A program made the translations under genes and the position numbers. A stretch of DNA of 50,706 nt. Origin: Methanosarcinales archaeon. GTDB taxonomy: Bacteria; Chloroflexota; Anaerolineae; Anaerolineales; E44-bin32. Shown in pieces: positions 14,080 through 15,240 of this stretch. Each line of letters opens with the position of its first letter. The first letter of the stretch is position 1. The stretch is taken from positions 1 through 50,706 of the forward strand of contig JAIWHF010000001.1 of NCBI GenBank assembly GCA_048629905.1. The letters are read 5' to 3'. The notes below the pieces were generated by a model. It did no database searches. It saw only the letters and a list, made by a program, of their open reading frames with translations, and was not told the origin of the DNA.

Positions 14080-15240
14080 ATGACCAACTTGCTTTCTTCT
14101 CTGGCAGTTTTCTTCGCAATGATCGCGGCGTTCACACCATTACTACCAGGCATCATCCCCCGCATCGGTTTACTGCCGCTTTACCGTACACGTCTCATCC
14201 GTGCAGTCCTAATACTCACAGCCTGGGCGCTGGCGATTGCCGCTTGTGTCAATACGCCATCGTCCTTTGTCGCACTGCCCTTTGTCCTCCTTCTCTCCAT
14301 CCCCACAATCTTATTGGAACCACAGAGGGTATTTGTATCTCTGGATGATCCAAAGCACGTTCCACCGTCACAGGCGAACCTCCGAGAAGAAGCCCTTGTC
14401 CTTGGGTTCGAGGAAAGTGGTTCTTCCGCAGCCTGGCCCTTCGAGACGCTTGTTCCCCGCCATTTGATTAACGACCGGGTCGGAGATGCGCCTTTATTAG
14501 TCGCCTACTGAGCGGCGTGCAACAGCGGCATCGTGTATGCCGCCGAAGTAGACAACCAGCGCCTGACATTCGAAGTGGTGGGTGTCTATCGCCGCAACAT
14601 GATTATCCGCGACCGCCAAACAGGCACATTGTGGCAGCATGCCACCGGCGAGGCGCTGATGGGACCACTCATAGGCACCCTGCTCCAGCCACTGGGAGGG
14701 GAACTCACACGCTGGTCTCGATGGAAAGAAATGAACCCGGCCACATCCCTGGCAGTGGAGCCTATTCCCGACCACGGTCGCTATCCCGGGCTCATTCCTC
14801 GTGATCGCCTGGAGCACCTGCTGGATTCTTTTACGACGAACTATGCAGCCCCGGGCTTGATTACCGATAAGCGCCTGCCTATGCACGAAGAAATCGCCGG
14901 GTTGAGTCTGGCCGGGGTGGACAGAGCCTACCCACTGACCATATTACGAGATCGGGGCGTCATCAACGACCGCATCGGTGAGCGTTATATCGCCATCATC
15001 TACGACGCTGACGCCGACCACGTGATTGCTCTCGATCGTCTCGTGGGTGACAAGGCCATCGATCTGGTTCCAGCTGATGGCGGCTTATCCTCACGCGATG
15101 GGATGATGCGCTGGACATGGGCGGGCAGCCCACTCACATCCAACACGCCCCCATTACAGCGACTGTGGATCGAGCGGCAATGGTGGCTGGGTTGGATTGA
15201 GTTTCACCCCACGAGCGAAGTCTATCAGGCGGATATTTAA
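14080..15240 (+). CDS. Membrane-anchored DUF3179 domain protein, candidate selenoprotein (in-frame TGA at 14509-14511 read as Sec)
   Basis: ORFs 14080..14511 and 14533..15240 share one frame and are separated only by one TGA. Read-through gives LLVAY-U-AACNSGIVY...LTFEVVGVYRRNMIIRDRQTGTLWQHATGEA, matching the DUF3179 core as I remember it (YCPLCNSG...). A SECIS-like hairpin follows the TGA. Confidence 0.6.
14525..14543 (+). promoter_or_regulatory. Candidate bacterial SECIS hairpin
   Basis: GCGGCAT-CGTGT-ATGCCGC is a perfect 7-bp stem starting 14 nt after the TGA. The 5-nt apical loop contains G and U about 20 nt from the UGA. Confidence 0.5.

Follow-up and report, generated by a model that had tools for sequence, protein, structure and literature searches.

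Proteins with a DUF3179 domain are listed among the predicted prokaryotic selenoproteins, with the selenocysteine (Sec) motif UxxC/T, in two reviews (PMC9312934, 2022, Table; PMC13188914, 2026, Table 1), the DUF3179 rows sitting after the experimentally verified selenoproteins in the review table. Both reviews credit Zhang & Gladyshev (Nucleic Acids Research 2007, PMC1976440), who described new families with Sec/Cys pairs and SECIS-like stem-loops in a text from which the name DUF3179 is absent, and MBW1804167.1 and MDJ0986319.1 are given as exemplars. The bacterial Sec insertion sequence (SECIS) is a SelB-binding stem-loop located directly 3' of the UGA (PMC9312934). In this study, we analyzed a 50,706-nt stretch of contig JAIWHF010000001.1 (assembly GCA_048629905.1; GTDB lineage Chloroflexota; Anaerolineae; Anaerolineales; E44-bin32), referred to here as the window, and in it a DUF3179 locus at 14080-15240 on the forward strand that is called as two open reading frames (ORFs). 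Comparison with related loci leads us to conclude that the locus is, very probably, one gene and a genuine selenoprotein gene with a UGA-encoded Sec.

An initial annotation of the window, made from its letters and ORF list, had proposed such a selenoprotein and had left aside whether Sec-containing DUF3179 members were already catalogued. They are, in the two reviews and in the name that NCBI gives to a close relative, MEA3337677.1 (Chloroflexota, 84% identical, truncated): 'DUF3179 domain-containing (seleno)protein'. This name probably stems from NCBI naming of the Pfam model, since an NCBIfam scan of the protein read through the internal stop matched no family. The gene in the window is thus a new member of a known selenoprotein family, and one that had been mis-annotated.

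Results

The ORFs at 14080..14511 and 14533..15240 lie in the same frame, and the TGA at 14509-14511 is the lone stop between them, as the initial annotation had worked out from the coordinates. Read as a single gene (14080..15240, +), the locus comprises 386 codons, that is, 385 standard residues plus a predicted Sec144, and ends at a TAA stop at 15238-15240. Translation through the TGA reads ...VGDAPLLVAY-[TGA]-AACNSGIVYAAEVDNQ..., with LLVAY-[TGA]-AACNSGIVYAAEV around the site itself, and the predicted Sec-spanning peptide is LLVAY-U-AACNSGIVYAAEVDNQR. With a Cys placed at the internal stop of the 386-residue product, Pfam hmmscan returned PF11376 (DUF3179) with 152.7 bits (gathering score 27; E = 1.8e-44), bearing out the family assignment made at the outset; the alignment covers residues 87-378 of the protein and positions 6-291 of the 292-position profile. 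The DUF3179 domain therefore occupies 14338..15213 (+) and follows an N-terminal membrane anchor of ~80 residues (14080..14319, +), delimited by hydropathy and charge count in the query and 19 homologues. The UGA at 14509..14511 (+), predicted to be read as Sec at residue 144, would form the first position of a U-A-A-C motif whose second position, Cys147, is encoded by the TGC at 14518..14520 (+), past the TGA and ahead of the first codon at which translation could restart.

The strongest evidence for Sec comes from relatives of the gene. The column occupied by the TGA holds Cys in 19/19 aligned full-length homologues (23-44% identical to the query), as part of a CxxC motif, and the second Cys (C147), three residues on, is invariant. 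The consensus of these homologues at the site is YCxACRSG; the motif given in the initial annotation, Y-C-P-L-C-N-S/T-G, is roughly right for distant members such as P0098 (FCPLCNSA), and the expectation stated there that the TGA would align with a conserved Cys was correct. We then fetched the DNA of 3 named loci from metagenome-assembled genomes (MAGs) of Anaerolineales/Anaerolineae and of 38 metagenome loci, and 39 of these loci reach the Sec codon. At this codon, 27 carry TGA, together with the hairpin described below, and 12 carry TGT or TGC, the two forms that the initial annotation had proposed to look for in relatives. The TGA forms span ~38-92% protein identity, and the TGA at the Sec site is identical across independent NCBI, ENA, JGI and Logan assemblies. 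A TGA that alternates specifically with Cys codons at a CxxC motif is the classical Sec/Cys signature, and it is this comparison with relatives, not the hairpin by itself, that makes the case for a selenoprotein.

Both halves of the gene are under purifying selection. None of the 23 distinct TGA-form genes contains a further stop on either side of the TGA. Upstream, each has at least 133 open codons, except L007, which ends with its contig; downstream, each runs ~200-250 codons to its own stop, except L032 and L039, which likewise end with their contigs. Relative to the window sequence, the ratio of nonsynonymous to synonymous substitution rates (dN/dS) in unsaturated comparisons lies at 0.18-0.27 upstream of the TGA and at 0.11-0.25 downstream of it, and dS among relatives reaches 1.7. 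The degradation in relatives that the initial annotation had raised as a sign of a pseudogene is therefore not seen in any of the 23. Residues 145-150 (AACNSG), with the invariant Cys147 and the highly conserved S149, are encoded after the TGA and before the GTG at 14533, the earliest codon available for a restart. Among the 23 Sec forms the codons of this stretch vary synonymously (TGC in 17 and TGT in 6; AGC in 20 and AGT in 2; GGC in 18 and GGT in 5). Conservation of the amino acids combined with synonymous variation of their codons indicates that the stretch is translated.

Immediately downstream of the TGA lies a SECIS-type hairpin at 14525..14543 (+), with a perfect 7-bp stem (GCGGCAU/AUGCCGC) and the apical loop CGUGU at 14532-14536; its presence agrees with the initial annotation, and its sequence occurs nowhere else in the window when up to 3 mismatches are allowed. 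The stem begins 13 nt past the UGA, the spacing from UGA to loop is 20 nt, and the loop contains G/U. Set against the numerical limits of the bSECISearch consensus, this predicted geometry fits a bacterial SECIS. All TGA forms retain GCGGYAU-CGUGU-AUGCYGC in the same register, whereas the Cys forms are without the hairpin. The peptide encoded over it differs between the two types as well, reading G-I-V-Y-A-A (SGIVYAA) in Sec forms and G-Y-V/I-F/Y-D-P (SGY(V/I)(F/Y)DP) in Cys forms. In 21 distinct sequences, 97.3% of stem cells are in standard pairs, and the variation consists of 11 one-sided wobble-compatible changes, 1 compensatory change and a few mismatches; the compensatory change, in locus L012, converts A-U to G-C through ATC to GTC together with TAT to TAC. 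Codon heterozygosity at synonymous sites is 0.24 at codons +1 to +12 versus 0.53 at 150 other codons (Mann-Whitney p = 2e-6), and the ATC (Ile) and GTG (Val) codons in the hairpin are invariant in 23 sequences.

The same hairpin accounts for how the gene has been recorded in databases. In a search of 5.8 billion proteins, 62 of the 63 closest homologues (56-92% identity) are 229-245 aa long, mostly 235 aa, and cover only the C-terminal 60% of the query. Those sampled for alignment all begin at the same V/M of 'VYAAEV', which means that gene callers everywhere terminate at one site and resume at a common GTG/ATG. In the window this codon is the GUG at 14533..14535 (+), in the loop of the putative SECIS; it is a spurious start that gene callers adopt, here as in database entries P0001-P0062. 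The exact C-terminal ORF of the window is also present in the NCBI MAGs GCA_048631865.1 and GCA_048632225.1, where the locus is called as 143-aa plus 235-aa products, and this split recurs in L042, L043, L047 and the P0049 contig, while the upstream call in L048 is 125 aa. More broadly, a search of 1.84 billion representatives of 50%-identity clusters recovered 3,948 DUF3179 clusters at E <= 1e-3; among the best 150 of these 3,948, 27 look like fragments of this type, being short and beginning at M/V-Y (or M-F) immediately past the Sec site, the signature of Sec forms.

As to the protein, the initial annotation had described two or three N-terminal transmembrane helices; we find three conserved hydrophobic segments (~10-26, 39-55 and 63-79), the first and second of which are separated by an Arg-rich loop. 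An AlphaFold (AF2) model of the closest full-length Cys homologue, P0063, which is 44% identical to the window protein, has a predicted local distance difference test score (pLDDT) of 94 and a predicted template modelling score (pTM) of 0.89, and shows N-terminal helices (pLDDT > 90) followed by a beta-rich domain. Searches of the PDB by sequence and by profile returned no relative, and Foldseek against the PDB gave the P0063 model no significant match and no thioredoxin-fold match. As modelled, then, the DUF3179 fold is not thioredoxin-like. The best Foldseek matches, and the only ones of appreciable probability, are short and local and of Rieske/NirD type, at E >= 0.07 overall: Rieske ferredoxin 3gce (probability 0.96, target-normalized TM-score 0.48) and NirD 3c0d (probability 0.87, target-normalized TM-score 0.53), both at E > 0.1. 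On the archaeal-looking contig that carries P0063, the gene directly upstream encodes a Rieske protein, and hhalign against that one neighbouring Rieske sequence was negative. The Rieske neighbour and the Rieske/NirD local matches are probably a coincidence, yet they offer a lead on DUF3179 function.

For membrane topology, the sequences give conflicting indications. In most of the clade, the loop between segments 1 and 2 has 3-5 Arg/Lys and no acidic residues, and the stretch after segment 3 is usually acidic; by the positive-inside rule, this would place the DUF3179 domain in the cytoplasm. Distant members, on the other hand, carry signal peptides or signal anchors, a hint that the domain is exported. 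Of the earlier description of the protein as membrane-anchored and 'probably extracytoplasmic', the anchor stands and the location is not established, as charge distribution and export signals conflict.

Selenium use by the organism is indicated elsewhere in the window. The initial annotation had named YqeB- and YqeC-type markers, and both score above their NCBIfam cut-offs: YqeB at 40857-41675 (-) matches TIGR03309 with 303 bits (cut-off 220), and a YqeC-MocA fusion at 39521-40855 (-) matches TIGR03172 with 170 bits (cut-off 73). The two genes adjoin a xanthine-dehydrogenase-like molybdenum hydroxylase. YqeB and YqeC mark the trait of selenium-dependent molybdenum hydroxylases, and a supply of selenophosphate, through SelD, is thereby implied. 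The selenium pathway that had been read from these markers thus holds as far as SelD; SelA, SelB and tRNA-Sec do not follow from them. Single-cell genomes of related Chloroflexi are reported to encode Sec-containing formate dehydrogenases (PMC5736913), so that Sec decoding in that part of the phylum is not unexpected. Of 40 long ORFs in the window, 14 use TGA as their ordinary stop, with recA, yqeB and fpg among these 14, and the genetic code is therefore not reassigned. No other TGA-split ORF within the window has a redox motif or coding support.

The genes around the DUF3179 locus are, in order, those for a DsbA-like protein, DUF554, Cob adenosyltransferase, a ComEA-like protein, DUF3179, an unknown protein and Fpg. 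This order holds only in relatives above ~88% nucleotide identity, and differs at 73-78% protein identity and in distant homologues; given this shifting neighbourhood, we draw no functional inference from it, and it indicates no partner. The DsbA-like Thioredoxin_4 protein (11148-11876, +) lies 2.2 kb upstream of the DUF3179 gene and is syntenic in close relatives only. The ORFs at 15394-16239 (+, 281 aa) and 17140-17964 (+, 274 aa) flank fpg and are conserved in close relatives; neither matches a Pfam family at E <= 1e-5, and the same is true of the ORFs at 30668-32077 (+, 469 aa) and 26521-26952 (-, 143 aa). An IS110-family transposase (DEDD_Tnp_IS110/Transposase_20) at 9737-10876 (-) is shared with L042, and L004 and the near-identical L043 lack it at the corresponding site, which identifies it as a polymorphic insertion.

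The selenium-dependent molybdenum hydroxylase cluster spans 39521-48453 (-). In addition to YqeB and the YqeC-MocA fusion it contains a xanthine-dehydrogenase-like Mo subunit (41678-43900, -), a fused FAD/2Fe-2S subunit (46186-47622, -) and XdhC (47632-48453, -). The cluster also encloses a 568-aa DUF6909 protein (43958-45664, -; PF21850, 761 bits) and a 134-aa ORF without a family (45674-46078, -) that lies in the same frame as DUF6909 with a TGA between them; DUF6909 may be an uncharacterised component of the molybdenum hydroxylase system. On the P0049 contig (JGI 3300042731), a 338-aa AIRS/AIRS_C protein is encoded at 16845-17861 (-), ~6 kb from a Sec-type DUF3179 gene, an architecture common to SelD, ThiL, HypE and PurM. 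Elsewhere in the window are an unusually long SecA of 1339 aa (19992-24011, -), with ~110-residue insertions within its DEAD-like and P-loop domains relative to the Pfam profiles, a tRNA-Leu(UAA) gene (24246-24332, +), a thioredoxin-TPR protein (25583-26428, -), a ThiF/MoeB-rhodanese fusion (29378-30550, +) and a 6S RNA (37287-37460, -; Rfam RF00013, 75 bits).

Discussion

Our data lead us to propose that the UGA at 14509 would not be read as a stop during translation. The 19-nt hairpin at 14525-14543, with its loop CGUGU, would act as a bacterial SECIS and recruit SelB carrying Sec-tRNA(Sec), the dependence on SelB being inferred, so that Sec is inserted as residue 144. The predicted product has 386 residues, in which a three-segment membrane anchor would be joined to a beta-rich DUF3179 domain, with a reactive centre, Sec144-Ala-Ala-Cys147, where Cys-type homologues have C-x-x-C.

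One alternative is that a DUF3179 gene was killed by a nonsense mutation at its Cys codon. TGC or TGT becomes TGA by a single transversion, and the locus is called as two ORFs in public records. Against this stand the recurrence of the same TGA in 27 loci over ~38-92% protein identity, 23 distinct copies without further stops or frameshifts, dN/dS of ~0.1-0.3 on both sides of the TGA, and a hairpin that is conserved at synonymous sites in TGA forms only; moreover, with dS up to 1.7, the relatives are not one recent clone. The comparative data effectively refute a pseudogene, and we consider this explanation barely credible. That a sequencing or assembly error created a false stop has a negligible probability: it is a general possibility in metagenome assemblies and nothing beyond that speaks for it here, and it is refuted by the identical TGA in independent NCBI, ENA, JGI and Logan assemblies. 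It is also conceivable that the locus holds two real genes, the first for a 143-residue membrane protein that stops at the TGA, the second for a soluble DUF3179 fragment of 235 residues that starts at GTG 14533, and that the two products might assemble after translation. Many assemblies carry just this split in their gene calls, and the GTG is available 22 nt past the stop. Such a split, however, would cut the domain within its CxxC motif, and would leave residues 145-150, with Cys147 and S149, untranslated, although they are conserved with synonymous variation; this excludes a two-gene arrangement on the coding evidence. In addition, Cys-type homologues are single polypeptides, there is no Shine-Dalgarno sequence ahead of 14533, and the GTG belongs to the conserved hairpin loop. 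Overall, we regard two separate genes as extremely improbable.

A further alternative accepts that the UGA is read but not as Sec: it could be decoded as a standard amino acid (Trp, Cys or Gly), either through reassignment of the code or through near-cognate read-through stimulated by the hairpin and without Sec machinery. Downstream hairpins can stimulate stop codon read-through in some systems, and selA, selB and selC have yet to be demonstrated for this genome. Reassignment is contradicted by the use of TGA to end 14 of 40 long ORFs, recA and yqeB among them, and decoding as a standard amino acid in general by the specific alternation of the codon with Cys at CxxC, by the existing classification of the family as selenoproteins and by YqeB and YqeC, which point to selenium use. 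We therefore judge it to be very unlikely.

Sec insertion at residue 144 thus remains, with high confidence, the prediction that sequence comparison gives, and several observations count against it. Neither the window nor the 42 fetched loci contain a tRNA-Sec; selA, selB, selD and other sel genes are absent from the window ORFs scanned, as are selA and selB from the fetched loci. The Rfam SECIS models gave no match at the gathering score, nor at E <= 10 on 14490-14600. The covariation score of the stem was reached by 79 of 500 shuffles and is not significant alone, since the hairpin varies too little. The single-sequence fold of 62 nt is unremarkable relative to shuffles (z = -0.24), and the plus strand of the window contains 52 perfect 7-bp hairpins, 11 of its 824 TGA trinucleotides having one 5-20 nt downstream. 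With hairpins this frequent and a z of -0.24, the hairpin on its own is no evidence, and we rejected its energy and frequency as arguments. Its interpretation as a SECIS, put forward in the initial annotation, draws its significance instead from the comparison with relatives; folding energy does not contribute. Finally, a redox role would be inferred from the motif only; the modelled fold is non-thioredoxin, and no conserved neighbourhood indicates a partner gene.

What the protein does at this site can be addressed in terms of likely chemistry. The most likely chemistry at U144-x-x-C147, judging from the motif, would be a reversible selenenylsulfide/selenol-thiol couple, with soft-metal chelation as the alternative. 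A broader proposal is that DUF3179 represents a distinct, non-thioredoxin redox or metal module, in which a beta-domain tethered to the membrane would combine a (U/C)xxC centre with a remote Rieske/NirD-like core, and that its Sec form is far more widespread than annotated, since gene callers start at the GUG in the SECIS loop. We consider this proposal, taken as a whole, unlikely. The window locus offers no operon partner through which the function of DUF3179 could be approached.

The main value of this work lies in correct annotation; it poses no new question on selenium biology, given that the family and its UxxC motif are already catalogued. In public MAG records, the gene in the window and dozens of its relatives are split into 143-aa and 235-aa 'hypothetical' ORFs, and these should be joined as one selenoprotein. 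The locus is also a clear illustration of how a SECIS within an ORF can fix nucleotides and encoded peptide alike.

How the locus compares with known systems can be stated at three levels. It resembles the catalogued DUF3179 selenoproteins in its Pfam domain, in a predicted Sec at the first position of UxxC, in Cys homologues at the same column and in a stem-loop directly 3' of the UGA, and it is unlike them in coming from an Anaerolineales-type (Chloroflexota) lineage and in being annotated as two ORFs. Like the bacterial SECIS of the fdhF type, the hairpin lies inside the ORF and immediately 3' of the UGA, with a G/U apical loop ~20 nt away, and constrains the encoded peptide, here S-G-I-V-Y-A-A; unlike that element, the putative SECIS is short (7 bp with a 5-nt loop), has no obvious bulged U and matches no Rfam SECIS model. 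With the thioredoxin-fold selenoproteins (Trx, Grx, DsbA-like and Prx-like), for whose families UxxC is on record (PMC13188914), the protein shares U-x-x-C in place of C-x-x-C, from which a selenenylsulfide redox couple would be expected, whereas the modelled Cys homologue of DUF3179 is beta-rich and carries a three-helix membrane anchor.

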